Of a stretch of DNA of 64,000 bases, positions 13,034 to 59,239 are shown one piece after another (positions within the stretch are counted from its first letter, which is position 1; every line of letters starts with the position of its first letter). The DNA lies in NCBI RefSeq assembly GCF_004010195.1, contig NC_057718.1:59268485-59332484 (forward strand). The letters are read 5' to 3'. The notes under the pieces are model-generated. The model saw only the letters and a program-made list of their open reading frames with translations, was not told the origin of the DNA and made no database searches. The stretch comes from Chiloscyllium plagiosum (taxonomy: Eukaryota). The position numbers and the translations under genes are program-made.

Positions 13034-13877
13034 AAGATTTGAAGCTCAGATTGAGTTTCAGGTTGTAAGTTTGCTCACTGAGCTTGTTTTCAGACGTTTC
13101 ATCACCATACTAGGTAACATCATCAGTGAACCTCCGGTGAAGCGCTGGCATTCTGTCCCACTTTCTATTTAAGAGTCTTGGTCTCTGGAGGTGGGTGATA
13201 TCATTTCTGGTTCTTTTTCTCAGAGGTTGGTAAATGGGGTCCAAATCGATGTGTTTATTGATGGACTTCTGGTTTGAATGCCAGGCCTCTAGGAATTCCT
13301 GTGCAAGTCTCTGTTTAGCCTGTCCTAGTTTTCTCAAAGTCATGTCCTTCTTCATTCGTATATAAAGACAGTAGTGATAGTCGGTCATGTTTTTTGGTGG
13401 CCATTTGGTGTTCGTGTATCCTGGTGGCTAGTTTTCTGTCTGTCTGCCCGATGTAGTCTTTGTTACAGTCCCTGCAGGGTATTTTGTAAATGACATTCGT
13501 TTGGCTGTTTGTTGGTATAGGATCCTTTAGGTTCATCAGTAGCTGTTTCAGTGTGTTGGTAGGTTTGTCGGCTATCATGATGCCAAGGGTTCAGAGAAGT
13601 CTGGTAGTCATCTCTGAGATGTCTTCGATGTACTTTAGTGTGGCTAGAGTTTCAGGGCGTGTTGTGCATACTTGTTTGAGTTTGTTGTTTAAGAATTGGT
13701 AGACTGTGTTTATCGGGTAACTGTTCTTCCTGAATATGCTTTAGGCATTTTTCTTCTGTTGCTCCTAGTTCCTGGTTGCTGCAGTATGTTGTAGCCCATT
13801 AAGATAATGTTCTGATGCAGCTCCATTTGTGGGTCTTGCAATGATTGCTTCTGTAGTTAAATATCTGGTCTGTATGT
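13034..13877 (-). mobile_element. Penelope-like element 3' part with GIY-YIG endonuclease
   Basis: ORF 13315-13578 NVIYKIPCRDCNKDYIGQTDRKLATRIHEH; ORF 13110-13388 EFLEAWHS..SINKH. Confidence 0.95.
13089..13130 (-). ncRNA. Minimal type I hammerhead ribozyme motif
   Basis: Reverse complement TTCA-CTGATGA-T-GTTACC-TAGTAT-GGTGAT-GAAA-CGTC-TGAA; stem I TTCA/TGAA, stem II with G-U pairs. Confidence 0.8.
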
Positions 13878-24857: not shown

Positions 24858-27287
24858 ATGGCTAAGTGTCTTATTAAATGGTGCACCTGGAACATTAAGG
24901 GAAGTCATTCACCTGTTAAAAGGACAAAAGTGCTTTCTAGCCTTAAGAGGGAAAGGGTTGATTTGCTTTGTTGCAGGAAACCCATCTTGATGATGGAGAA
25001 CACCTGAAGTTACAACAGGTGGGTTATGACGAGGAATTCTTTTCATCCTTTACTACTAAAAGTAGGGGAGTGGCGGTACTTATCCAGTAAAATCTTCCAT
25101 TCACATTATTAGAGCAGGTGAAAGATGAGCAGGATGGTTTGTGATACTGAAAGCCCTGATACATGGGGAGGAATATGGCATTTTAAATGTCGACTGTCCT
25201 CCGGCGCATCCCCTCAAATTTTTGATTAGTGCTTTCTCTAAGTTGAGTGCTTTTGGAACATAGAACATTATTATAGGGCGGAGATTTTAATTGTCTTTTG
25301 GATCCAACAGTGGACAGGATGTCTTGTGGGCCCCCAACTATTTCTTTGCAGGCCAAGCAGGTGGTTGACTTATGCAAGGATATGAGGCTCATTGATATTT
25401 GGAGATGTCTTCACCCTACCAGCAAGGACTTCACCTTTTTTTCCAACCCACATAAATGTCACATGAGGATTGACCTCTTTCTGACTCCCTCAGCCCTTCT
25501 GGATTCGATTATGAGTTGTAAAATTGGGAATGTAACTATCTCTGATCACGCGGCAGTATATTTGGAGGTTAAGGCCAAGAGTGAAGGGCTAGGTTTGCGG
25601 CACTGGCGTTTGGACCCTTTTCTTCTTAAGGATACTAAATTTGTGGAATACATTTTGAAGGAGTTTCAGGAATTCTTGACTATCAACTCAGGCACGGCTA
25701 GTGGTCTGTCCATGCTATGGGAGACTGCTAAGGCCTTTGCTGGGGGATTAGCTATTTCCTATTCAGCTAGCCGGAAACGACAGAGGAAGGAACAGCAGCA
25801 TCTACTTGAGACGCAGTTGAAAGCCGTCAAGGCAGCACATTTTGTGCGGTCTTCGCTGACTAAGCTATGGTGGATCTCGGCCCTCCTTGAATTTAATACT
25901 GACACAAAACGCAAAGAAAGAACTTGTTTTTGCTAGACAAAGGCTGTTCGAGTATGGGATATGCCAGGGAAGTATTTAGCGTACCTGACTCGGAAAAAGT
26001 GTGCTCCCCAATCCATTACTGCAATCAGACACAGCGCCGGGGTCCTTACATACGAGCGAAAAAAGATTAATGAATTGTATCGGTATGAAGGTTGCGAAGA
26101 CAGGAGGGCTAAAATGGAGACCTTTTTTAAGAACCTGGACCTCCCAGGGGTAACCTTGGAACAGGCCTCTTTCCTTAATGCCCCCTTGACAGTTCAGGAA
26201 ATACATGAGGCAGCATCAGCAACTTCAGAGTGGGAAAGCGCCTGGCCCTGATGGTCTCCCGGGTGAGTTTTATAAGGAATTTATAGGGATTCTGTCAGGG
26301 TTCTGTTGGAGATGTACAATCACTCCAAATGCATGAACGCCTACCACCATCTTTGAGAGAAGCTAATATTTCCTTAATTCTTAAGAAGGGGAAGGTTCCT
26401 GAGGATTGTGCCTCATACAGGCCCATCTCTCTATTAAATTCAGACTTCAAGATTCTGTCCAAGACCCTGGCACTGAGATTGGAAAGGGTGTTGCCCCATA
26501 TTGTCAAAGAGGACCAGACAGGTTTTATAAGGGGCCGTAGGTCCACGAATAATATTAGAAGGTTGCTGAATATGGTCCAAGTTTGTCAGCAACGATCGGT
26601 TCAGGGGTTGGTGATTTCCTTAGATGCAGAGAAAGCATTTGACTGGGTGGAATGGCCACATCTTTTTTATGTCTTAGAACAGTTCGGGTTGGGTGGAATC
26701 TTTGGTAGGTGGGTGGAGGTTTTATATCGCCACCCTCTGGCTGCAGTCATCACCAAAGGAATGGATTTTAGGATTGGTAGGGATAGTCGGCAAGGCTGCC
26801 CCCTCTCACCGTTGTTGTTTACGTTGGTGATAGAGCCGCTGGCAGAGGCTATTCGTCAGAACGTCCACATAACTGCTCCGGAAGTGGGATTGAGGGCACA
26901 CAAGACTACATTGTATGGGGATGACGTCCTTCTGTTTTTATCGAACCCAATGACCTCTGTACGCCATTTTATACAATGTATCAAGTCAATTGGGGCTATT
27001 TCAGGATATAAGATTAACTTTGCAAAATCAGAGGCTATGCCTTTGGGGAACATTAAGGATGTGCCAGAAGTTGAAGGAGGCTCTAAGTTCCCTTTTAAGT
27101 GGTCACGGGCAGGGTTCCAATACCTAGGCATTTTTATTACCCCCAAGTTTGATCTGTTATTTTGGACTAACTTTGCTCACTTGCTCGACAATATTAAGCG
27201 AGATCTCCAGAGATGGAAGGCTCTTCCAATGTCATGGCTGGGCCGAATATCTCTCATTAAATTAATGTTCTTCCTCGTTTGCTTTTC
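24858..27287 (+). pseudogene. L1 ORF2 (APE endonuclease plus RT), frameshifted
   Basis: TWNIKG, LQETHL, GDFN, RIDLFL, ISDHA; YRPISLLNSDFKILSK, QTGF, SLDAEKAFD, RQGCPLSPLLF, YGDD. Confidence 0.93.
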
Positions 27288-28374
27288 CCATCTCTTTTGT
27301 AATGGCAACCATACTCAACTCAGCCCCCTGACTCCCTTTAATTGTTGGGATATTACTCATGTCTTCCACTGTGAAGAGTGATGCAAAATACTTATTAAGT
27401 TCTCCAGCTATTTCCTTATCTCCCATCACTAGGCTTCCAGCATCAGTTTGAAGTGGCCCAATGTCTAATCCCTCCCCGGATAATCTTTCTTTTCTTGGGG
27501 ATGAACCTCTGTACAGTGTCCTCAATTATACCTACAAACTCCTGCCATTTTTGCTCTACTGTCTTCCCTGCTAGGCTCTGCTTCCAGTTGATTTTCGTCA
27601 GTTCCTCTCTCATGCCCTCATAATTACCTTTGTTTAACTGTAACACCATTACATCCAATTTTGCCTTCTCTCTTTCAAACTGCAGACTGAACTCTACCAT
27701 ATTATGATCGCTGCTTCCTAAATGTTCCCTTACTTTAAGATCTTTTATAAAGTCTGGTTCATTACACAGCACTCGGTCCAAAATAGCCTGCTTCCTTGTG
27801 GGCTCCATGACAAGCTGTTCCAAAAAGCCATCCTGTAACCATTCCAAGAATTCCCTTTCTTTGGATCCACTGGCAACATTATTTATCCAGTCTGCCTGCA
27901 TATTGAAGTCCCCCATGATCACCGTGACCTTGCCTTTCTGACATGCCTTTTCTATTTCCCGGTACATGTTGCGCCCCTGGTCCTGACCACTATTAGGAGA
28001 TCTGTACATAACTCCCATTATGGTTTTTTTGCCTTTGTGGTTCCTCAATTCCACCCACACAGACTCCACATCATCTGACCCTATGTCATTCAGTGCCATA
28101 GATTTAATTTTGTTCTTAACTAACAAGGCCACCCTGCCCCCTCTGCCCACCTCCCTGTCTTTTTGATAAGTTGTAAATCCTTGGATGTTTAACTGCCAGT
28201 CCTGAACCCCCTGCAACCATATCTCTGTGATGTCTACCACATCATAATCATTCACGGTGATCTGTGCCATTAGTTCATCTACTTTGTTACGAATGCTACA
28301 AGCATTCAGGTAAAGTGCCTTAATGCTAACATTCTTATCATTAGAGATATTGGAAGTCATAAGATGTCCTAAGT
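27288..28374 (-). mobile_element. CR1 ORF2 endonuclease fragment inserted into L1
   Basis: ORF 27443-28360 YLNACSIRNK, MGDFN, LGSSDHNM; internal deletion near 27478. Confidence 0.93.
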
Positions 28375-29849
28375 TTAATTATGGAGCACATTTAAACAAT
28401 CCTTAGATAAGCACATGGACTTTTTCACAAACATGGTGCATCATACAACAGACAATTTTTATAAGACATGGCAGCCCTACTGGAGTTATTTGGATATAGA
28501 TTTGTCAGTTATCTTAACTAGGGCATTTGTTTAACCAAGATGGTTATATTTGCCAAGCTCTGGAGGGGGTCTCCTGAGTTAATACGGGTATTTATACAAT
28601 GCCCCCGTTCTTTTGTTTGGGAGCTTTGCACAGAGCATAGCTGTTCTGTATTTTTTTTTGCTTTTCTATCTTTTTTTGATGTTGCTTTGCACAGTGTTAG
28701 GGTTTGTTTTGTATTATAGGATAGGTTAGTAGTTAGTAGACAGTAGTGTATTGTAATTTGTGTTTTTTTTCTTTTAATTATACTGATATTTGTTATTGAT
28801 TGTATTTTTCAATAATTTTATGTTTGTAAAGTTAAAAAAAATTGCTAATACATATACTTACAAAAAAAATTGTTCTGAAAATTGAAATTAAAGTAAACAG
28901 TATCACCAATGTAATTTCAAATATCCTTTTGTTCAAGAGTCCTTTTCTCCTCTATCAGATATTTCTGCTGAACTGGAATGGGAAAAGAGTTTAATTCAGT
29001 CTATGTGTTTGATTTAGTTTTCTCATATTCCAATCTTCCCAAGATATGCTTGGTCTGAACATCATAATCACACCTCAAGTCATAGTAATGTTTAACCACA
29101 TTTCCTATCAAAAGTAAGAATATTTTTGAAAGTGTTGAAATCCACTTATGAAAAAATAACAACTATTATCAGTTCGTTTCAAGTGTGAGGATTAAACAGA
29201 TTAGTCGATTTTAAGTCCCCACCTCTGCACATTAAACTGCCAGGAATGTCAATAGATGAATTGCTTTCAGGGATCTGTGGGCTCACTTATGCCTTTTCAT
29301 AATGGGAGCATAAGTGGAGATGACAAGCTTTGAGAGCTAAGAGTAATGAGCTCTAATTTGGCAAGTTAAAAGGAACTATTGTATTTACACTTTGTTTATC
29401 AGTAAGCAGTAGCTTATGTGAGCATGTGGTGAATGTTAGAGTTTTTATATTTTATCCACTTAACTGGGGCAGTATTTTAAACTGGCATTGGGAAGATATA
29501 AATCTTGCATGAAAGTTATAGCTTGATGGTTACATTATTTAACATAACTACAGATAACATTGGAGAGACATTTATGGAATTGAGACCTGATTTGTTAAAT
29601 AAAACACGAAGACTAGGCAATATATTTGTTGCAGCTATTGTATATCAGAACTGGTGGACATTCTTGTGATCCAAAATAAAACATCTGGAGTAAGTACCTG
29701 ATATTTGAGGGGCTTCAGCTAGGAGCTGATAAGCTGGTGTCTGAGTTACAGAAAATACAGTGCATAAAGGCGGGAGAAAGTTACCTGGACACTTTTTTTT
29801 TGTTTTCCAGAAGGTAGTAATCTCTGTGTCAGATGTGCGATTGAGGCAG

Positions 29850-32800
29850 GTGGACATGTCTGAGAGTGAAATACTTATGGGGACGCTCAAGGGTAATGAT
29901 GGAAGAGCCTCAGTCCTTGCAGTTGTCTAACAGGTTCAAGGTTCTTGTAGCTTGTATGAATGACAGTAGGGACCAAAGGGAAATTACTGATCGCAGAACT
30001 TTCATAAGGGACCATCCAAGTGCAAGGAGTAAAACTGAATGTAGCTGGGGGCTGTTGTCAGCAGCTGGGAGCACAGTGTAACTGTGTGGTGTTAGAAATG
30101 TATTGTTTTTGTTTGGAACTGAACTTGAAGTGGGAGGGGAAGGATCCAGTTTCATACTTCACTTAAGTCACCCAAAAAAGATGTTCTGCTGGGAGTGTCT
30201 GATTCACAAACATCCAACTTACAAAAGCTTATACTTACGAACGTGATCCAAACAGGGGTGGCACTTTGAAGATCTGATATATGAATGTTTCCTGCTCTTA
30301 CAAACTGCTAGTTTATATCATCCCACACTGTGTTCTGATTTGTGTACAAATTGACTTATGAACAGATAAAACAGTCTTTAGCAAATAGAATAAAAGAGAA
30401 CCCTAAAGCTTTCTATGGGTATATGAGGAATAAAAGGATGATTAGGGTAGGAATAGGGCCAATCAAAGACAGAAGTGGGAAGTTGAGTGTGGACCCTGTG
30501 GAGATTGGAGAGGTGCTAAATGAACATTTCTCATCAGTTTTCACTCAGGAAAAGGAGAATATTGTAGAGGAGAAGAACGAAGTACGGGATATTAGACTAG
30601 AAAGGATTGAGGTTAATTATGAACAGGTGTTATCAATTCTAGAAGGAGTGAAAGTAGACAAGTCCCCTGGGCCGGATGGGACTTATCTGAGAATTCTCTG
30701 GGATGCTAGGGAGGAGATAGCAGAGCCTTTGGCTTTGATATTTGAGTCGTCATTGTCTACAGGTTTGGTACCAGAGGACTGGAGGATTGCAAATGTTGTG
30801 CCCTTGTTGAAGAAGGGCAGTAAAGATGACCCAGGTAATTATAGACCAGTGAGCCTTACTTCTGTTGTATGAAAGGTTTTGGAAAGGATTATAAGAGATA
30901 AGATTTATAATCATCTAGCAAGCAACAATTTGATTTCAAATAGTCAACATGGTTTCGTCAAGGGCAGGTCGTGTCCCACAAACCTCACTGAGTTTTTTGA
31001 GAAGGTGACCAAGCATGTAGGTGAGGGTAGGGCAGTTGACGTGGTATGCATGGACTTCAGTAAAGCCTTTGATAAGGTTCCACATGGTAGGCTGTTGGAG
31101 AAAATGCCGAGGCATGGAATTGAGGGTGATTTGGCAGTTTGGATTAGAAACTGGCTTTCTGAAAGAAGGCAGCGAGTGGTGGTTGATGGAAAATATTCAG
31201 CCTGGAGTCCGGTTACTAGTGGTGTGCCACAAGGATCTGTTTTGGGACCACTGCTGTTTGTCATTTTTATAAATGACTTAGACGCAGTCATAGGTGGATG
31301 GATTAGTAAATCTGCAGACGACACTAAAGTCAGTGGAGTAGTGGACAGTGTGGAAGAATGTTACAGGTTGCTGGGGGACTTGGATAAACTGCAGAATTGG
31401 GCTGAGAGGTGGCAAATGGAGTTCAATGTAGTTAAATGTGAGATGATGCACTTTGGGAAGAATAACAGGAAGGCAGAGTACTGGGTCAATGGAAAGATTC
31501 TTGGTAGTGTGGATGTGCAGAGGAATCTTAGATTCCATGTACATAGATCCCTGAAAGTTGCCACCCAGGTGGATAGTGCTGTGAAGAAGGCATACGGTGT
31601 GTTAGGTTTCATTGTAGAGGGATTGAGTTCTGGAGCCGCAATATCATGCTGCAACTATACAAAACGTTGGTGCGGCCACACTTGAAATATTGTGTACAGT
31701 TCTGGTCCCCATATTTTGGGAAGGATGTGGAAGCATTGGAAAAGGTGCAGAGGAGATTTACCAGGATGTTGCCTGGTCTGCAGGGAAGGTCTTATGAGGA
31801 AAGGCTGAGAGACTTGAACCTGTTCTCATTGGCAAGAAGAAGGCTAAGAGGGGATTTGATAGAGACATACAAGAAGATCAGAGGATTAGATAGGGTAGAC
31901 AGTGAAAGTCTTTTTCTGAGGATGATGACATCAGCGTGTATGAGAGGGCATAACTACAAATTGAGGGGTTGATAGATTTAAGACAGATGTCAGAGGCAGG
32001 TTCTTTACGCAGAGAGTGGTAAGGCTGTGGAATGCCCTACCTGCTAACGTAGTCAACTCAGCCACATTAGGGAGATTTAAACAATCCTTAGATAAGCACA
32101 TGGATGATTTTGGGATAGTGTAGGGGAACGAGCTGAGAATAGTTCACAGATCGGTGCAACCTCGAGGGCCGAAGGGCCTGCTCTGTGCTGTATTGTTCTA
32201 TGTTGTATGTTCTAAAAGAAGAGAACCTGTTCACAAGCTGAGAACTGCCTGTATTTAGAAACATGCGGCTTCATTAGAAAGCAGGACCACAAAGATAGTG
32301 ATACGGTGATTACTAACCAAGCCACAAACAAATTTATATAAGGTGAATAATTTCAGAGAGTTGAATAAGATTTGTTCTGAGAGAAATGGATTTTCATTCA
32401 TTGGGTTTGGAATCAACATTGGATTAAGACAGAGTTGTACCACTGAGATAATCTTTACTCAAACTACACTGGGACCTGTGTCCTGGAAATTCTACAACCA
32501 GTGCTTTCGAGTGGGGTTTAAACTCAATATCAAAGGATGTGGAAGTAGGGTTCCATTGGGCAGATTTGGAAAGTTTAAACAGTAGTGATAATGCAATAGT
32601 GCAGGGTAACTGCACAGACAATGGAGACCAGATTGTAACAGGAAGAGAGAGAATTTGTTAAAGTTCACTAGCAACATGGTCATGCTTGGACAACATTGCT
32701 TCAAATAAATGAGGAGGAGAGTTCAAATGAAGGGAGATTTTAGAAGTCCAAAGATAATATTAGACCAGCAGAAAAGGTTATTGATGCAGATGAGGGCAGT

Positions 32801-38014: not shown

Positions 38015-38930
38015 TGGACGATGGCCTACTGTGATAAAAAATCTGCCACGTACATTCAGATGCTTATCGCCTTAAATGAATGAGTTCAGTGTCTCAAAAG
38101 GTGCCTTCTTCAAGTATTAGTGCCCACAGCTCTGTGCCAGGATATAGTGTCACAATTACCTCAGAACAAACATGGAATGGAGTTAATGAGACAATTTGCA
38201 TGTGGTATTGTCCATTGCCAGATATTAACTGTGACATCAGAATTAGTGAGAGTATGTGTGGAATTCCAGAGGCACCAGCAACAGCAAAGTAGAACCCCTC
38301 AATACCCACACCAGACTCCATCAGTCCCCTAGTCCAAAATCCCCAGGGAACTGTTTACTGTGAATTTCCAATTATCACAGAGGTAAAGAACACTTCAAGC
38401 ACATCTGTGGCAGACACACTGAGTGTCATAGTCATCTATTGGTACACCTGATGAAATCATTTTTAACAATGGGCAGATTCTCAGGGATAAGTGTGGCATG
38501 TGATTTCCTCACCCAGAGATCATTTGATCTGGATAATGGTCTGCACTGTTAAATTGCTCATCCTGAATGTAGGATGATAAATCCCAAGATTTTTGTGTTG
38601 CCTTGTTGACTCTTCTAGATATACAGTTACCATTGCCAGCAGAGAGCATGTCTGGAAGGCAATGAGAAAGACTTCTGCCAAGACACAAAATTGTGAGATA
38701 CACAATACACTTCTCAAAACAAGGGTAGACGAAGATGCATGACTGGCAAGGAAATGCCAAACTACTTCATTATGCATTGGACAATTGGGGAAAGTCAAAC
38801 ATGCCTGAAAGGGAAGCTAATTACCTGCAGAAATTTCCAACGTACACAATGAGACAGGTTTTATGAAGTCACAGCACCTAACAAAGCAACTCTTAGGAAT
38901 AGAAGCCAACTAAGGAAAGTGTACAGTATG

Positions 38931-39978
38931 ACCTGAAAATGTGTTGCTGGAAAAGCGCAGCAGGTCAGGCAGCATCCAAGGAGCAGGAGAATTGAAGTAT
39001 CGGGCATGAGCCCTTCTTCAGGAATGAGGAAATGTGCCAAGCAGGCTAAGATAAAAGGTAGGGAGGAGGGACTTGGGGGACGGGTGTTGGAAATGCGATA
39101 GGTGGAAGGAGGTTAAGGTGAGGGTGATAGGCCGGAGTGGGGGTGGGGGAGGAGAGGTCAGGAAGAAGATTGCAGGTTAGGAAAATGGTGCTGAGTTCCA
39201 GGGATTTGACTGAGACAAGGTGGGGGGGGGAGGGGAAATGAGGAAACTGGAGAAATCTGAGTTCNNNNNNNNNNNNNNNNNNNNNNNNNNNNNNNNNNNN
39301 NNNNNNNNNNNNNNNNNNNNNNNNNNNNNNNNNNNNNNNNNNNNNNNNNNNNNNNNNNNNNNNNNNNNNNNNNNNNNNNNNNNNNNNNNNNNNNNNNNNN
39401 NNNNNNNNNNNNNNNNNNNNNNNNNNNNNNNNNNNNNNNNNNNNNNNNNNNNNNNNNNNNNNNNNNNNNNNNNNNNNNNNNNNNNNNNNNNNNNNNNNNN
39501 NNNNNNNNNNNNNNNNNNNNNNNNNNNNNNNNNNNNNNNNNNNNNNNNNNNNNNNNNNNNNNNNNNNNNNNNNNNNNNNNNNNNNNNTGGTGGTGGGATC
39601 TGTTTGGAGGTGGCGGAAATGATGACGGATGATACGATGTAAATGGAGGTTGGTGGGGTGGTAGGTGAGGACCAGTGGGGTTCTGTCCTGGTGGCGATTA
39701 GAGGGGCGGGGCTCAAGGGCGGAGGAGCGGGAAGTGGAGGAGATGCGGTGGAGAGTATTGTCGATCACGCCTGGGGGGAAATTGTGGTCTTTGAAGAAGG
39801 AGGCCATCTGGGTTGTTCGGTATTGGAACTGGTCCTCCTGGGAGAAGATGCAGCGGAGATGAAGGAATTGGGAATATGGGATGGCGTTTTTACAGGGGGC
39901 AGGGTGGGAGGGAGTCGGTCGGTTTATAGTAAACGTCCGTGTTGATTCGGTCGCCCGAGATAGAAATGGAGAGGTCTA
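38931..39978 (-). mobile_element. Penelope-like element, 5'-truncated, with a 9-bp TSD
   Basis: ORF MASFFKDHNFP..DRTPLVLTYHP (PLE thumb/linker); HHR-type end near 38990-39025 with GAAA mutated; TSD tacagtatg at 38922-38930 and 39979-39987. Confidence 0.88.
39265..39587. other. Assembly gap, 323 N
   Basis: Run of n. Confidence 1.
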
Positions 39979-40499: not shown

Positions 40500-41950
40500 T
40501 CTCATTACACTTGGATGTGATTATGCCAGCATTTGACTTAAAGTTATGGTGTTAGATAAACAGTGGAAAAGATGATAAGAAATAATTCAAAATGTTCTAC
40601 AAAAATACATTCCATTGAAAACCAAAATCTATGATAAAGATCCATCTATGCATTACCAATGAGCTTAATGTTAGTATTAGGTCAAAAGAGAATTATAATG
40701 TTGCAAAGACTTGTATTAAATTAGAGGATTGGGAGTATTTTAGAAACTAGACAATAGTAACAAAAAAAAAGTTGGGAAAAGAAGGAAGTAGTCAGAAATA
40801 TAAGAGATTTTATGTATGTGTTTGTGTATAAAGGAAGCAAGTAGCTAAAATAAACATTGGTCTCTCAGAAGCAGAGGAAGGAGAAATTATCATGGGCATG
40901 AGTAACTAAGAGATTGAATAAATATTATTTTGCCTGTCTGGACTATAGAAGAGACAAGTTACATGCTCAAAAGAAAACCCCAAGGAGATCATAACAGTGA
41001 GTAAATTAAAATAATTGATATCTGCAGAGAAACTGGAGAAATTCAAGGGATTAAAATCCAACAAATCCCCAGAGCCTGATGATCTAAATCTTAGGAGCTG
41101 TAAAAGAAGAAACTGCAAAGTGATGTGCTAGATTTGACATTCCAAAATTCCTTAAATTCTGGAATGGTCCCTGAAAATAGCAATTTACAAATGTAAAATT
41201 TATTTAAAAAAGGGAACCTCACGCCAGTTAGTCTGACATCTGTGTCATCAGGCATGTACTGGAACTTATTATGAAGTATATATCTCAATGTCCCTGGAAA
41301 AGCATGATATATGCTGAAAAATGTGTTGCTGGAAAAGCGCAGCAGTTCAGGCCGCATCCAAGGAGCAGGAGAATCGATGTTTCGGGCATAAGCCCTTCTT
41401 CAGGAATCATGCTTATGCCCGAAACATCGATTCTCCTGCTCTTTGAATGCTGCCTGATCTGCTGAGATTTTCCTGCAACACATCTTTCAGCTCTGATCTC
41501 CAGCATCTGCAGTCCTCACTTTCTCAAAGCATGATATATTTAGAACAAGTGAACATGGTTTTATAAAATTAAATCCTCCTTGCCCAATTTATTCCATTGG
41601 TTTTCCGGATATAACCTGTAGGATAGATGAAGAGGAATCAGCAGATGTTGGATACTTGGAGTGCTGGAAGGCATTTGGTGAGTTAGCATATGAAACGTTA
41701 ATACGAATCATAAAGGCTAAGAAGTTGGAGGTGATATTTTTAGCATGTATAGAGGATTGGTTAATGGACTGGAAGCAGATGGCAGATAAATGTGACATTT
41801 TTAGATGGGCATGCTGTGAGTAGTGAAGAGCAGCAAGAGTCCATAATAAGGCCTTAGTTATTTACAATCTACATTAGTGGCTTGGGCTAAGAGACAGATT
41901 AATATATGTAAGTTTCTGATAATACAAAACTGAGTGGAAAGTTACAGATT
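40500..41950 (+). mobile_element. Old CR1 ORF2 remnant, probably continuing 29850-33430
   Basis: GLKSNKSP.PD, PVSLTSV, and decayed HGF and KAF motifs. Confidence 0.7.
41313..41525. mobile_element. Palindromic PLE-derived HHR element with a 14-bp TSD
   Basis: Inverted arms of about 85 bp; TSD aaagcatgatatat at 41299-41312 and 41526-41539; minus-strand CTGAAGA-A-GGGCTTATGCCC-GAAA-CATC. Confidence 0.9.
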
Positions 41951-45045: not shown

Positions 45046-45049
45046 GAGT

Positions 45050-45984
45050 TGTACTCATTCTTCTTTTGGGGTTGCCGACTTTGCCAAAGAGACTGTGTAA
45101 TATCCTTGCCCATTGCACGAGGAAGAACATTCTACTGAATTGGAGGTCAGAAAAACCACCAGGTCTTATGGGGTGGCGTAGGCTGGTGATGGAGCATCTC
45201 CCCCAAGATTACCTCACAAGTATGGTGCACCACAAAACGGAACAGTTTTATAGGATGTGGCAGCCCTTTCTAAATTATATTGAAACTGACTTGTCAGCAA
45301 TATTAATCAGGGCCGTGGTATAGCTGTGGGAATCTTTATGGGCACCCATAGGGCCCCGGGAGAAGGAGACTGGAAAGAAAAGAATATGGGTACTGTAGGG
45401 GATACTCCCAGGGATGGGAGCCTCAGTGGAGGTATGATGAGTAAGATAGAATAAAATATTGAGATATTATTTAATTTAAGTTATTTGAATGTAGTTTAAG
45501 CTAGTATATATTTAATATGTTTGTAGTTTAGTTTTAGTTAAGTAAATATATTTGCTTTGGTAGAATAATGGATTGTTTTATTAACAATAGTACTAGGAGG
45601 AGAAAGTGAGGACTGCAGATGCTGGAGATCAGAGCTGAAAATGTGTTGCTGGAAAAGCACAGCAGGTCAGGCAGCATCCAGGGAACAGGAGAATCGACGT
45701 TTCGGGCATAAGCCCTTCCTGAAGAAGGGCTTATGCCTGAAACGTCGATTCTCCTGTTTTCCTGAAGAAGGGCTTATGCCCGAAACGTCGATTTTCCTGT
45801 TCTCTGGATGCTGCCTGACCTGCTGCGCTTTTCCAGCAGCACATTTTCAGCTAAAAATAGTACTATGCTTTAGCCTTGTTCTTTGTGCTTTTTTTTCTGT
45901 TTTGAAGGGTTTTTTCTTTATATATAAATGTTTTGTAAAAGATTTTAAAAAGCTTTTCAATAAAAATATTTATACAAAAAAAAA
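45050..45984 (+). mobile_element. L1-clade 3' fragment
   Basis: ORF 44946-45323 RKNILLNW..MEHLP..FYRMWQPFLNY is homologous to 28378-28530; AATAAA and poly(A). Confidence 0.88.
45596..45855. mobile_element. Palindromic PLE-derived element with tandem HHRs and a 10-bp TSD
   Basis: TSD aatagtacta at 45586-45595 and 45856-45865; HHR cores at 45719 and 45762. Confidence 0.9.
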
Positions 45985-46194
45985 GGATTGTACTCTGTCA
46001 GAAAACAAGAAAACTGCATATAGAAGAGAGTGAATGAGCTGCAGGTATAGTTCTACAACCCATGGTAAAAATGAATGTCAATGTTCACAGCTTACATTAT
46101 TGTGTTTGGGATTTCTTGTATTCTCCTGATATAACAAAGTCATTTATGAAAAACTGGTGCAAGTTATTCCAATAATAATATACCAGAGTGTGTA

Positions 46195-49494: not shown

Positions 49495-51988
49495 TACAAA
49501 GAACAAAGGACAAAGAAAATTTACAGCCCAGGAACAAGCCCTTCGGCCCTCCAAGCCTGAGCCGATCCAAATCTACTGTCTAAACCTGTCGCCCACTTCC
49601 TAAGCATCTGTCCAGATGCATCTTAAATGAATCTACTGTGCCTGCCTCTAACACCTCTTCTGGCAATGCGTTCCAAACGCCCACCACCCTCTGTGTAAAG
49701 TACTTGCTGCATGTATCCCCCTTAAACTTTCCACCTCTCACCTTGAAAGTGTGACCTCTCGTTGCTGAATCCTTCATCCCTGGGAAAAAACTTGTCTCTA
49801 TCTACCCTGTCTATACCCTTCATGATTTTGTAAACCTCAATCAGGTCCCCCCTCAATCTCCTTTTTTCTAATGAAAACAAACCTAACCTACTCAACCTCT
49901 CTTCATAGCTAGCACCTTCCATACCAGGCAACATCCTTGTAAACCTTCTCTGCACTCTCTCCAAAGTATCCACATCTTTTTGGTAATGTGGAGACCAGAA
50001 CTGTACACAGTATTCTAAATCCGGCTGAACCAATGTCTTGTACAATTTTAACATGACTTGCCAACTCTTATACTCATTGCTCTGTCCAATGAAGGCAAGC
50101 ATACCATATGCCTTCTTAACCACTTTATCCACCTCTGCAGCAAACTTCAGTGTACAAAGAGCCTGCACTCCCAGATCTCTCTGCCCATCAACTTTTCCCA
50201 AGGCTCAAAGTCTGTGAGAAGATTTGTAGCTCGGGTACTCATTGTGGTTCTGTTCGCCAAGCTGGGAATTTGTATTGCAGACGTTTCGTCCCCTGTTTAG
50301 GTGACATCCTCAGTGCTTGGGAGCCTCCTGTGAAGCGCTTCTGTGATCTTTCCTCCGGCATTTGTAGTGGTTTGAATCTGCCGCTTCCGGTTGTCAGTTC
50401 CAGCTGTCCGCTGCAGTGGCCGGTATATTGGGTCCAGGTCGATGTGCTTATTGATTGAATCTGTGGATGAGTGCCATGCCTCTAGGAATTCCCTGGCTGT
50501 TCTCTGTTTGGCTTGTCCTATAATAGTAGTGTTGCCCCAGTCAAATTCATGTTGCTTGTCATCTGCGTGTGTGGCTACTAAGAATAGCTGGTCGTGTTCA
50601 ATTTTCCCAAGGCTCTTCCGTTCATTGTATAATTCGCTTTACAATTAATCTTGCCTAAATGCAACACCTCACATTTGCCTGGATTGAAATCTATCTGTCA
50701 CTTTTCCACCCAACTCTCCAGTCTATCTATATCCTCCTGTATTCCTTGACAGTCCCTTATGCTTTCTGCTACTCCACCAATCTTCGGGTCACCTGCAAAC
50801 TTTCTGATCATATTAACAGTGCCCTCTTCCAGATAATTTATGTATATCACAAACAACAGTGACCCCAACACTGACCCCTGTGGAACACCACTTTTCTCCA
50901 TTTTGAGAAACTCCGTTCAACTACTAGTCTCTGTCTCCTGTTGCTCAACCAGTTCTTTATCCACCTAGCTAGAACACTCTACACACCATGTAACTTCACT
51001 TTCTCCATTAATCTACCATTGGGAACCTTAGCATACACCATAGTAAAGTCCATATATATGACATCAACAGCCCCTCCTTCATCTATCAACTTGGTCACTT
51101 CCGCAAAGAATTCTATTAAATTGGTAGGGCACGATCTCCCCCGCATAAAACCATGTTGCCTATCTCTGATAAGCCCATTCTTTTCTAAATATTAATAGAT
51201 CCTATCCCTCAGTACACTCTCCAGCAACTTTTCCACTACTGCCGTCAGGCTCACTGGTCTGTAGTTACGCGGAATATCCCTACTACCCTTCTTGTACAGG
51301 AGGACAACATGAGCAACCCTCCAGTCCTCTGATACCACACCTGTACATAAGGATGCCACAAAGATATCTGTCAGGGCCCCAGCTATTTCCTCTCTCGCCT
51401 CCCTCAGCAACCTGGGATACACCCCATCTGATCCTGGGGATTTGTCCACCTTAATAACCTCTAGCCTACCCAACACCTCTTCCCTACTTATGTCAACGTG
51501 ATCTAGACTAACTAAACTTCTATCTCTAATCTCAAGATTCATCATGTTCCTCTCCGCAGTGAACACTGATGCAAAGTGATCATTCAGAATCTCACCCATT
51601 CTCTCAGGTTCGACACACAGCCTTCCTTCATTATCCTTTAGTGGACCAATCCTTTCTTTAGTTACCCACTTGCTTCTTATATAAGAATAAAATGCTTTGG
51701 GATTCTGCTTAATTCTGCTTGCTAAAGCTATTTTATGACCCCTTTTAGCCCACTTGATTCCTTGTTTAAGACTTGTCCTACTCTTCCGATATTCCTCCAG
51801 GGCCCATTCTGTTCTTAGCTGCCTAGACCTTATGTACACTTCCCTTTTCCTCTTGGCTAGTTGTACAATTTCTCCTGTCATCCACGGTTCATGAATCTTG
51901 CCCTTGCTAACCTTTGCCTTCAACGGACATGCCTATCCTGCACTATCTTTAACCTATCTTTGAAAGCCTTCCATATATCAAATGTGGC
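49495..51988 (-). mobile_element. CR1 LINE, 5'-truncated, interrupted by a PLE
   Basis: ORFs 51192-51923, 50698-50901 and 49722-50201 carry CR1 RT motifs. Confidence 0.96.
50207..50597 (-). mobile_element. Penelope 3' fragment with an HHR, inserted into CR1
   Basis: Homologous to 13034-13400; near-perfect TSD tcaa(c)ttttcccaaggctc on both sides; HHR GCA-CTGAGGA-T-GTCACC..GGGGAC-GAAA-CGTC-TGC near 50277-50317. Confidence 0.9.
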
Positions 51989-54379: not shown

Positions 54380-56230
54380 TGAGTATCGGGAGTTAATAGT
54401 ACAATAAAAGGAAATAGTGGATAAAATGAGCAAATATTTCCTTTTGTCCTCAAAACAAAGGGTACATGGAATGTTTGGTATTAACTGTAAATTAGAGGTG
54501 GACATGAGAGAGAAACTTGGTGAAATGACCAGCACAAGAGAAGTGGTGCTGCAGGAACTGATGGAGCTATTTGTGTTATTTTTTCAAAAATTGTTATATT
54601 CCAGAATGGTTGGATAACACTGGAAATTAAGAAGTATAACCCTTCTATTCAAGGTGGGGGAGAGGCAGAAACCATGAAACTTCAGGCAAGTTAGCTTGAT
54701 GTCTATTTTTGGGAAGGTGTTAGAATTGATGGTGAAAGAAATTGCATATCCAGAAAAATTCAAGGTCATTGAAAAGTTTAACAGAATTGAAGAGTGTGGT
54801 GCTGGAAAAACTCAGTCAATCAGGCAGCATTCAAGGAACAGGAGAATCAATGTTTTGGGCATAAAGATTCCTGATGAAGGGTTTATGCCCAAAGCATCTA
54901 TTCTCCTGCTCCTCAGATGCTGTCTGACTGGCTGTGCTTTTCCAGCACCACACTTTTTGACTCTGATCTCCAGCATCTTTGGTGCTCACTTTCTCCCTAA
55001 CATTTAACAGAGTTTGATAAAGGGAAATCATGCTTAATCAATTGTTGGAGTTCCTTGAAGAAGCAACAAATGCCTGAAATAAAGATGAGTCTGTAGAATG
55101 TACTATACTTGGTTTTATAGAAGGCATTTTATAAGGCGGCACATCACAGCTTATTGTAGAAACTGAAAGCTCCTGGTGTAGATGGTAACATATCAGCTTC
55201 ACAGAAGATCGGCCGACTGGCAGAACAAAGTACACAATGTGCCGTTGGCAGATTGGCAGAATATGATGAGTGGAGGAGTTCCATAGGGGTTTGTAAGTTG
55301 TAGGAGCCTCAAGCTTCTACAACTTACATCAATGCTTAGATGAGGGAAGCAAAGAACAGCACCAAGACAGACAAGAAAGTATAGTGTGAAGAACAAATAA
55401 AGTTGCAGATGGATAACTTCACATTTTACTACATTATACTCCATCTGTTGGCAAAAGTCTGGCAGATGGAGGATAATATGTTCAAATGTCAAGTTGTTCA
55501 CTTTGGCAGAAAGAATTAAAAAAACTGAGGATTATTTAACTAGAGAATGACTGCAGAATTCTGCAGAGGTATTTAGGGGTTCTGGTGTATGAATCACCAA
55601 ACACTAGTAAGTACAGCATATAATCATGAAGGTTATTGTGAGCTATCCCTTCATTATTAGAAAGATTGAACATTAAAGTAATGATGTTATACTTAATTTA
55701 TACAGGGCATTGATGATATTGCATCTTGAATACTGTTTGAAATTTCACTTTCCATATTTAAGAAAGAATGGGAATACGTTGGTGGTGATTCAGAAAAGGC
55801 TTAATACATGGATGAGTGAGTTCTTTTATGAGGTTAGGGCTGGTTTCTACTGGAATTTAGAGTGAGGGGCAACTTGCTTGAAGTGGATAATAACCTGAAT
55901 GTTCTTCTTAGGATGGACACAGTAAGGATGTTTATATTTGTGGGTGAATCCACAACAAGGGGACACTACTTTTACTCCAGGGTAGAAATGGGGAGAAATC
56001 TTTTGTCTCAGAGAGTTGTGCAAATCTGGACTGCTACATCACAAGGTGGTGGAAATGGGGGTCAGTATTTTTTAAATATTCAGGGGTGAAGAAATCCTTG
56101 TTAGGTAAGGGAATGAAGAGTTGTTGGGAGTAATGGGAATGTTGAATTTGAAACACAAGCTCATAAACAGCAATCTTATTGTAAAATGTTGAAGCAGACC
56201 GAATGATCTACTCCTGCTCCTATTTTGTGT
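54380..56230 (+). mobile_element. Old CR1 fragment
   Basis: Decayed RT (KGKSCL.N.LEF, WQM..N..KC.VVHFG) and 3' UTR. Confidence 0.8.
54790..54997. mobile_element. Palindromic PLE-derived HHR element
   Basis: Inverted arms; CTGATGA-A-GGGTTTATGCCC with GAAA decayed; flanked by tttaacaga (54777, 55003). Confidence 0.85.
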
Positions 56231-57479: not shown

Positions 57480-59035
57480 TTGGAAGATCTGGCATCACCA
57501 ATGGGAAGAAAGCGGAGCTAATGTTTTGAGTCCGGTGACCCATCAACAGAAATATTAGCAGCTTGGAAAAGCTTGAAGCCAAAATTGGGGGAATGGGTGA
57601 AGGGGAGAGGTGAGTGGATCGATGGAGATGCAGCTCAGAGAAAGAGAGGTAAGAAAGGAGTGGGTAAACATGGAAATTATGGTTAGCAGGCCAGGCCAGA
57701 AGCAAAACTGAATAAGGGATATAAGACCTAAGAGTGAGAAAATGGGTGAGTTGTACTGAATGCAACACATTTCATGTGCTAATGGGCATTGGAGTATGTG
57801 TGGATGAGTGACTGCGCTAAAAGCATGTCATAACAGGACTGGGTGTGGGGGTGGGTAAAAACATGGAAGGGTAGAATCAGGCTCGAAAGTTATCAAACTC
57901 AATGCTGAGTCCTAACGGAAAATAAGATATTGTTCTTCGAGCTTACACTGCAGCAGGTCTGCAACAGAAATGTTGCCATAGGAACATGGTGGTGTGTTGA
58001 AGTGATAGGAAACTTAGGGTCATTTTTGCAGACAGAGTATAGGTGTCCTGCAAAGTGGTCATCCAGCATACACGATGTTGAGGAGATCACATTGTGAACA
58101 ACAAATACAGTACACTAAATTGAATGAAGTGCAGGCAATTAATGCTTCACCTGAAAGGTATGACTGAGGCCTTGGATGGTGAAGAGGGAGGAGGTAAATG
58201 GGCAGGTATTGCACCTTCTGTGATTGCATGGGAAGGTCCTGTGGGAATGTGAGGAGATGTTGTGAATGGAGGAGGAATGGAGGAAGAGAGTGTCCTGACG
58301 GAATGGTCCCTGAAGAATGCTGACAAAGGAGGGGAGGGGAGTAGAATATGTGTCTGGTTGTGGCATCCCACAGGAGCTGATGGAAATGGCTGCTTACAAT
58401 CTTTTGGACATGGGTATTGGGGGGTGGTAAGTGAGGAGGACCAGAGGGACCCTATCTTTGTTGTGGAAGAGATGGGAAAGGGTAAAGTCAGAAGTGTGGG
58501 AGATACATTGAACAGGGCTAAGGGATCTTTTGACCACAATGGCAAGGAATCCTTGATTGAAGAAAAATGAGAAATTTGGACATTTCTGACCCTCCTCCCC
58601 CCCCCCCCCCCCCCCCCCCCCATCACATGGTCCCTCCCCCTGCTGAAGGTGGCTTCATTACAACAGATATGACAGAGGTGGAGAAACTGGGAGAATAGGA
58701 TGGCGTCAAACAGGAAGCAAGGTGTGAGGATGTACTGTTGAGATAACTGTGGGAGTTGTGCATTTGTAATAGAAACAGAGATATCAAGGAAGAGAAGGGA
58801 GGATTTGGAGATGGACCAGGTGAAGGTGAGGCTAGGGTGGAAATTGGAAGCAAAATTTATAAGTTTTTCCAGTTTAGAACAAGAGTAAGGGAAGCAGCAC
58901 CAAAGATGTAATTGATGTATGAGAGAAAGATTTGTGCGGAGGGACCCAAGTAGGAATGGACAATGTTCCACAGGCCCCATTAAGAAACAGGTATAACTGG
59001 GGCCCATGCAGGTACCCATGACTATCCCTTTGATC
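57480..59035 (-). mobile_element. Old Penelope-like element (RT to endonuclease)
   Basis: MGTCMGPSYTCFLMG, INFASNFHPSLTFTWSIS..FLDISV, TFPCNHRRCNTCP linker. Confidence 0.9.
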
Positions 59036-59239
59036 TGAGGCTATGTTAGTGGTTTGGGAGGAAAATGTGAGAGAGAGCCATTGAGTAGACATTGATGCAT
59101 GTAATATTGGGAATTGTAGTTCATGAATCTTGGTGAGAGGCTTGTGCGGTGGCAGAGCGAGAGTGAATGGCAGCCTTGTAAAATGTGACATAGCTGAGAG
59201 AAAATGGTGGCACTTATAATTGCAAAGCACAGAAGATCA

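Follow-up and report, generated by a model that had tools for sequence, protein, structure and literature searches.

How did a hammerhead ribozyme motif come to be doubled within a single small insertion, and does the pair act as a ribozyme where it lies? The motif occurs twice, 43 nt apart, inside a 260-base insertion in the Chiloscyllium plagiosum stretch analyzed here (the window, 64 kb in its entirety). Our analysis favors the account in which this insertion is a head-to-head end module of a Penelope-like element (PLE), the hammerhead was doubled by a single stutter of the reverse transcriptase (RT) during insertion, and the resulting pair is predicted to remain uncut where it lies in the genome. 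We hold this account to be probable, with a substantial share of doubt left to the alternatives weighed below.

The insertion interrupts the 3' UTR of an L1 element

The host locus has the following features.

45048-45323, plus strand: C-terminal end of the ORF2 of an L1-clade LINE, with its stop codon (protein comparison: 58% to P0001, 39% to P0002)
45324-45983, plus strand: 3' UTR of the L1 copy with an A-run at its end, broken by the PLE insertion (from the sequence)
45586-45595, no strand: left target-site duplication, AATAGTACTA (exact repeat; empty-site contig)
45856-45865, no strand: right target-site duplication, AATAGTACTA (exact repeat of the left copy)

An earlier reading of this DNA, made from the sequence alone, had placed the insertion between 10-bp target-site duplications in an L1 3' UTR, and protein comparison together with the exact repeat bears this placement out. 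The upstream piece matches P0002 over 45048-45320 (E 4e-11) up to the ORF2 stop codon at 45321-45323, and human L1 ORF2p in turn matches P0002 (E 5e-100). The L1 piece was named through this homologue route, and neither Pfam nor the Atlas gave a name for 45048-45320. The A-run of the L1 copy lies near 45974-45983, and from 46013 on contig depth drops from multi-copy to single-copy level.

The 10-bp duplication is exact (chance of about 3e-6 at a fixed place), short and situated in AT-rich DNA, as is usual for PLE end modules. Judged by its letters, its true length may be 13-14 bp with one mismatch (45582-45595 and 45852-45865). An organism B contig (run X6, record 19) passes directly from 45474-45585 to 45856-45939 and thus presents an empty site; because its identity is only ~94-95%, this contig may be a paralogous L1 copy rather than the orthologous site.

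The insertion is a palindrome with unequal arms and a tandem at its center

The insertion itself (45596-45855) is palindromic, with its parts head to head, and is composed as follows.

45596-45632, minus strand: 37-nt PLE tail, present in the left arm only and the presumed distal start of reverse transcription (alignment of family copies; tail as defined in PMC8557442 and PMC11167929)
45633-45718, minus strand: left arm, a pLTR end module 5'-truncated inside the hammerhead, which starts GAAGGGC and has no CUGA box (family alignment, motif scan)
45716-45718, no strand: 3-nt overlap TTC at the inversion junction, common to the left arm and unit 1 (from the sequence)
45716-45758, plus strand: tandem unit 1, a minimal hammerhead with C3 at 45719, G10.1-U11.1 (C>T at 45738, a CpG) and a notional cut after 45746 (sequence, TRF)
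45759-45801, plus strand: tandem unit 2, a minimal hammerhead with an intact core, C3 at 45762, a notional cut after 45789 and a private C>T at 45794 (sequence, TRF)
45802-45852, plus strand: remainder of the right arm, to the proximal family 3' end TTTTCAGCT (family alignment)

The inverted arms (45633-45726 and 45759-45852) are 94 nt long and 93% complementary, and as a whole the 260-mer forms a single long hairpin (-182.6 kcal/mol, z -21, with 0 of 200 shuffles as good), in agreement with the earlier description of a tandem lying between inverted arms. The long right arm includes unit 2 only, while unit 1 loops out, and a perfect 35-bp hairpin spans 45684-45758. The arms are unequal: the left one has 37 extra nt (45596-45632), and the right part stops at 45852, the nearer of the two family ends. 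We rejected fold-back copying of the right arm as the source of the left arm, which contains these 37 nt absent from the right arm and does not contain the tandem.

The tandem is as the sequence-only reading had it. Two head-to-tail copies of 43 nt (45716-45758 and 45759-45801) agree at 41 of 43 positions (95%), and TRF reported a period of 43, 2.0 copies and a score of 158, under parameters that differ from those of a retrozyme preprint (10.64898/2026.07.22.740005). Both units read CTGAAGA-A-GGGC-TTAT-GCCY-GAAACGTC, with GTC at 45744-45746 and 45787-45789, and the ACGT of unit 1 can pair with the ACGT of unit 2 (A-U, C-G, G-C, U-A). Compared with the published PLE minimal hammerhead consensus, both units have the core CUGANGAH ... 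GAAAN palindrome UH. The G10.1-C11.1 pair that closes helix II is kept in unit 2 and is G-U in unit 1. Stem I is weak, as had been suspected: helix I consists of 2 bp (C-G, U-A) in both dimer cores, and several other copies in the window have a third pair. Helix I is short by one pair here because the family A at the fourth upstream position was lost at both junctions. The minus strand has no CUGANGA box, and a third hammerhead on that strand was discarded as a candidate since the sequence there reads CAGGAAG.

The module belongs to an abundant PLE family

The same module occurs at 7 other insertion sites in the window, and contig run X1 yielded 107,669 records on a 901-base stretch, with the highest summed depth over the element. 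The family was identified through a sibling copy at 38930-39975 (minus strand) that runs upstream into an ORF remnant 80% identical to P0003, a Chiloscyllium punctatum protein. Relatives of P0003, from C. punctatum and Rhincodon typus, have RT and GIY-YIG matches: P0004 matches RVT_1 (E 7e-8), and P0005 matches GIY-YIG above the cut-off (E 9e-5) and RVT_1 below it (E 9e-5). Pfam gave no relevant match on the PLE ORF remnants themselves. Since the sibling copy continues into this RT/GIY-YIG-related remnant, the module is a PLE end; by sequence comparison, and by way of the sibling rather than of the present locus, the 260-nt module is the terminal repeat of a PLE encoding an RT and a GIY-YIG domain. 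The sibling copy is itself interrupted by a 323-N gap at 39265-39587.

With its inverted arm, one-end tail and target-site duplication, the insertion is an ordinary PLE stub. PLE insertions are described as combining a partial tandem with a copy that is inverted and 5'-truncated, a tail of 30-40 nt at one end and a target-site duplication (PMC3846280; PMC8557442). An inverted 5'-truncated copy adjoins the 5' end here, and the 37-nt tail, at one end only, falls within the published range. In its head-to-head end modules, one-end tail, 10-14-bp duplication in AT-rich DNA and two family 3' ends, the insertion resembles those of endonuclease-bearing PLEs (PMC3846280, PMC8557442 and PMC11167929); it differs from those elements in having no ORF. 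At 260 nt it lacks the RT-EN ORF of its own that an autonomous PLE has, and Pfam found no match on the open frame 45569-46030. It also departs from the canonical partial tandem, as these sources depict it: there the cut falls at the 5' end of the upstream copy, whereas here that copy keeps its 5' start and the cut falls at its 3' end.

Further copies were noted in the window. Those at 41313-41525 and 54782-54996 are palindromic and of the same family, each with one long-tailed and one short arm; they have an apparent target-site duplication and keep the CUGA box in just one arm each. The segment 42437-42503 (minus strand) is a distant relative (75%) of the end module. A multi-copy joint in run X5, from 45818 to 45759, might mark a direct tandem of 60 nt in another member of the family but agrees equally well with a head-to-head palindrome, and we gave it no weight.

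The doubling coincides with the family's usual 5' edge

We propose that doubling and insertion were one process. The PLE protein would nick both strands of the AT-rich site, and cDNA would be primed from both target ends, with a distal start at 45596 (with the tail) and a proximal start at 45852. The right-hand cDNA would reach the 5' edge usual in the family, which lies 3 nt before C3, then prime anew 43 nt back, on RNA of the same kind, and run to that edge a second time, before joining the left-hand cDNA via the TTC/GAA overlap. Neutral decay would have followed insertion. With purified Anolis PLE protein, both strands are nicked and extended, and two internal starts define the tail (PMC11167929). 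Extension of both strands would explain the pair of arms, provided that cDNA was primed at each target end. The jump of the template to an internal site is a step that we infer; our literature search turned up R2 work on such jumping and no PLE case.

Both units start at C3-3. The window has 7 other copies that bear a hammerhead: 4 of them start between C3-2 and C3-4, one aligns to 19 nt before C3 and the remaining 2 reach further into the repeat. In the contigs, 11 of 15 joints among the matches listed (666 joints further) fall at 45758-45767. The timing can be gauged from divergence: the units differ at 2 of 43 positions and the arms at 4 of 86, both 4.7%, which suggests, on these small numbers of differences (2 and 4), that doubling and insertion are of about the same age. 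As each unit has one private C>T, the duplication preceded both changes.

Rare variants bear on the template. CCTGTT is common to all three of the left arm and the two right-part units and occurs in 1 of 9 other aligned rows, and the C at 45804/45681 occurs in 0 of 9. Because the left arm shares these rare variants of the right part yet has a single motif, the source template was probably without the tandem, as judged from these letters. Ribozyme cleavage was rejected as the origin of the junction: unit 1 ends 12 nt past its notional cut site. With its frequency known from one 64-kb window, in which 0 of 7 other same-family insertions has the tandem, a one-off doubling is most likely; such an isolated event, which the sequence-only reading had itself set against its proposal, is the best fit.

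The main rival of re-priming is early slippage at the palindrome center. Here the insertion would have landed with one hammerhead, and a 43-nt doubling by DNA slippage or repair at that center would have followed soon after, leaving an equally inert pair. Hairpins and long palindromes can promote slippage, and the locus has both in its perfect 35-bp hairpin and its long palindrome. Slippage after insertion is also conceivable because of a near-homology between the two edges, TTCCCTG following the end of the unit (in the left arm's letters) and TTCCTG where the unit starts; this near-homology, however, predicts a unit of 41 nt and not 43, and the duplication edges have no exact homology. The coincidence of the left edge with the family's 5' stop also speaks against slippage, as does the equality of unit and arm divergence, which requires the event to have been early. 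We regard slippage as unlikely, though far from negligible. An artefact of assembly or consensus at a palindrome that is hard to sequence, the other way in which a second unit might appear, is improbable. It would fit the finding that no contig crosses the tandem junction 45758/45759 among the matches listed (24 pieces; 204,846 further), the presence of one 323-N gap in the window inside another family copy, and the report that PLE inverted structures are hard for assemblers (PMC8557442). But the two C>T transitions away from the family letter, one per unit and one of them in a CpG, look like decay and unlike a copied read, and a run X1 contig is identical over 45515-45611, of which just 16 letters lie within the element. 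Re-priming during insertion thus remains our preferred reading.

The left arm is predicted to mask both hammerheads

One further segment is needed to discuss cleavage.

45747-45789, plus strand: the 43-nt piece that double cleavage would free (hypothetical), without both family 3' ends (family alignment, motif scan)

The two units had been thought able to supply each other's helix III. As a matter of topology this holds, since the reciprocal double-hammerhead fold is nested and its helix III is fully paired in the model, as the published model for PLE minimal hammerheads has it (PMC4209133); with the left arm present, however, the probability of helix III falls to 0.000. The double hammerhead costs +11.0 kcal/mol in 45716-45801 and +12.5 kcal/mol in 45716-45855, both without the left arm, and this rises to +29.2 kcal/mol with 16 nt of that arm and to +46.7 kcal/mol with the whole of it, so the competition from the long hairpin that had been anticipated is apparent in the model. 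Forcing only the core that cuts after 45746 costs ~+7 kcal/mol without the arm and +17.4 kcal/mol with it. In a control, cofolding two molecules of one natural family copy likewise cost +11 to +14 kcal/mol; the fold model penalizes any such junction, and therefore only the effect of the left arm discriminates.

The effect of the arm is large. For plus-strand transcripts starting at 45596 (4 lengths), the probability of helix III was 0.000, and pairing between unit 1 and the arm was 1.000 until the right arm was complete, at which point unit 2 took over (0.992). With starts at 45700-45716, the helix III probability climbed to 0.05-0.15 when the transcript ended at 45790 and never exceeded 0.004 when it ran further. 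The minus strand, which has no core, folds into the long hairpin too. The model therefore predicts that in a read-through transcript the left arm pairs with unit 1 and then with unit 2, hiding both motifs in the long hairpin, and the doubled hammerhead is predicted to be inert in place. A transcript that lacks the arm might cut weakly, since helix I can be 2 bp in published cases. RNA run X22 (polyA single-cell, ~6% read) had 0 of 8.3 million reads on the stretch and counts as no expression test.

These results weigh on the idea that the locus is a working double hammerhead, in which both cores would fold in a transcript from about 45716 and cuts after 45746 and 45789 would free a 43-nt RNA that a ligase could close, making the locus a micro-retrozyme. 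The nested fold with a fully paired helix III, the agreement of the unit 2 core with the published consensus and the 0.05-0.15 helix III probability of arm-less transcripts ending at 45790 are in its favor. The locus also nominally satisfies an operational definition of retrozyme dimers, and families as short as 51 bp are reported (10.64898/2026.07.22.740005). Yet both cuts are required from cores that each have a 2-bp helix I, one of them with G-U at 10.1-11.1, at a cost of +46.7 kcal/mol with the arm. There is no sibling among the 7 window insertions, and only 2.0 units are present, running on into normal pLTR, with no rolling-circle multimer. The freed 43-mer would be without both family 3' ends, and the PLE protein probably would not copy it; even in Anolis, no read ends at the hammerhead cut site (PMC11167929). 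Release of a 43-nt RNA, as the sequence-only reading had envisaged it, is thus not borne out, and a working pair is the least likely of the readings considered.

Relation to minimal hammerheads and retrozymes

The units resemble the minimal hammerheads of PLE pLTRs that Cervera & De la Pena described in 2014 (PMC4209133). These have a palindromic, loop-less helix III and were proposed to act as dimers, a principle that the paper credits to Forster et al. 1988; there was no cleavage by a lone motif and weak cleavage by dimer and trimer constructs, and helix I was as short as 2 bp. The units share with them CUGANGAH, an extra base after A9, G10.1-C11.1 (in unit 2), the palindromic GAAAC-GUC without a helix III, and a short helix I. 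They differ in spacing, which is 43 nt here, ~3 kb in intact PLEs and ~87 nt in the tested multimers (inferred from the 147- and 234-nt labels of that paper). The locus also differs from these minimal hammerheads in its 2-bp helix I and one decayed unit. In Anolis the PLE hammerhead needs the PLE protein and is dispensable for insertion in vitro (PMC11167929).

Tandem hammerhead repeats in animals are non-LTR retrozymes, which have canonical hammerheads and give rise to RNAs, in both linear and circular form, that are 170-400 nt long (PMC7229834). According to the retrozyme preprint (10.64898/2026.07.22.740005), retrozymes derive from PLE ends, have family consensus lengths of 51-972 bp, include one sampled chondrichthyan, and are recognized operationally as at least 2 consecutive tandem units each with a hammerhead motif; Xenopus dimers cleaved in 1 of 9 cases and did not in the other 8. 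Like these retrozymes, the locus has tandem type I hammerhead units from PLE pLTRs, and dimers are a recognized class. Unlike them, as these two sources present them, it has a 43-nt unit in 2.0 copies, no sibling in the window and a hairpin that masks itself. Two tandem units with a hammerhead motif each are present, as the operational rule asks, whereas the unit is not of the 170-400-nt, canonical-hammerhead kind. We therefore assign the locus to the PLE stubs: it is nominally within the dimer rule and outside the size of expressed retrozymes. In the literature that we covered, which is partial, neither core-only micro-tandems nor shark PLE hammerheads were the subject of any paper, and no counterpart was found of a core-only tandem so short with an upstream unit cut at its 3' end.

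As found, the locus carries little weight: it is one decaying insertion, its family is very abundant, and the kind is already in print. What small value it has lies in mechanism: two cDNA runs stop at the same base just before the hammerhead core and not at the cut site. Such ends fit a stop of the template or of copying at the front edge of the ribozyme, with cleavage not having shaped the insertion. Should micro-tandems prove recurrent, they would give PLE ends a direct path to retrozymes, and the dimer model of minimal hammerheads could be tested on a natural series of spacings. A bolder version would have the PLE RT regularly stall at the 5' edge of the hammerhead, re-prime a few dozen bases back and so mint micro-dimers, with this locus a snapshot of retrozyme birth; pairs without arms would then self-cleave in cis and free 43-nt RNAs or circles. 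We consider this very unlikely. Were it true, these RNAs or circles would be shorter than the retrozyme families in the literature compared.

Wider searches and other elements in the window

Pattern searches outside the window gave 0 matches for the tandem core in metagenome contigs. The single core had 0 matches in metagenome contigs, 0 in viral contigs and 1 in prokaryote genomes (L001), which we dismissed as chance because it has no flanking element sequence and its genome has no match to the module. Rfam returned 7 matches at E<=5, none of them to a hammerhead family, and the match to MIR6136 (44 bits against a gathering threshold of 99) was set aside as merely reflecting the hairpin.

The window holds other mobile-element remnants. 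Another hammerhead family, whose helix II is longer (CTGAKGATG...GAAAYGTCTG), occurs at 13126 (minus strand), 14080 (plus strand) and 50313 (minus strand), the first two facing apart at a distance of ~950 nt. The third lies between ORF pieces at 49725-50204 and 51195-51932 (minus strand), which we take to be CR1-like. LINE pieces at 26287-27381 (plus strand), 30873-31685 (plus strand) and 27443-28378 (minus strand) comprise two RT fragments and one endonuclease fragment. Finally, 58150-59040 (minus strand) is a decayed RT-like frame (GIVMGTCMGPSY) with no Pfam match, presumably of another PLE family.
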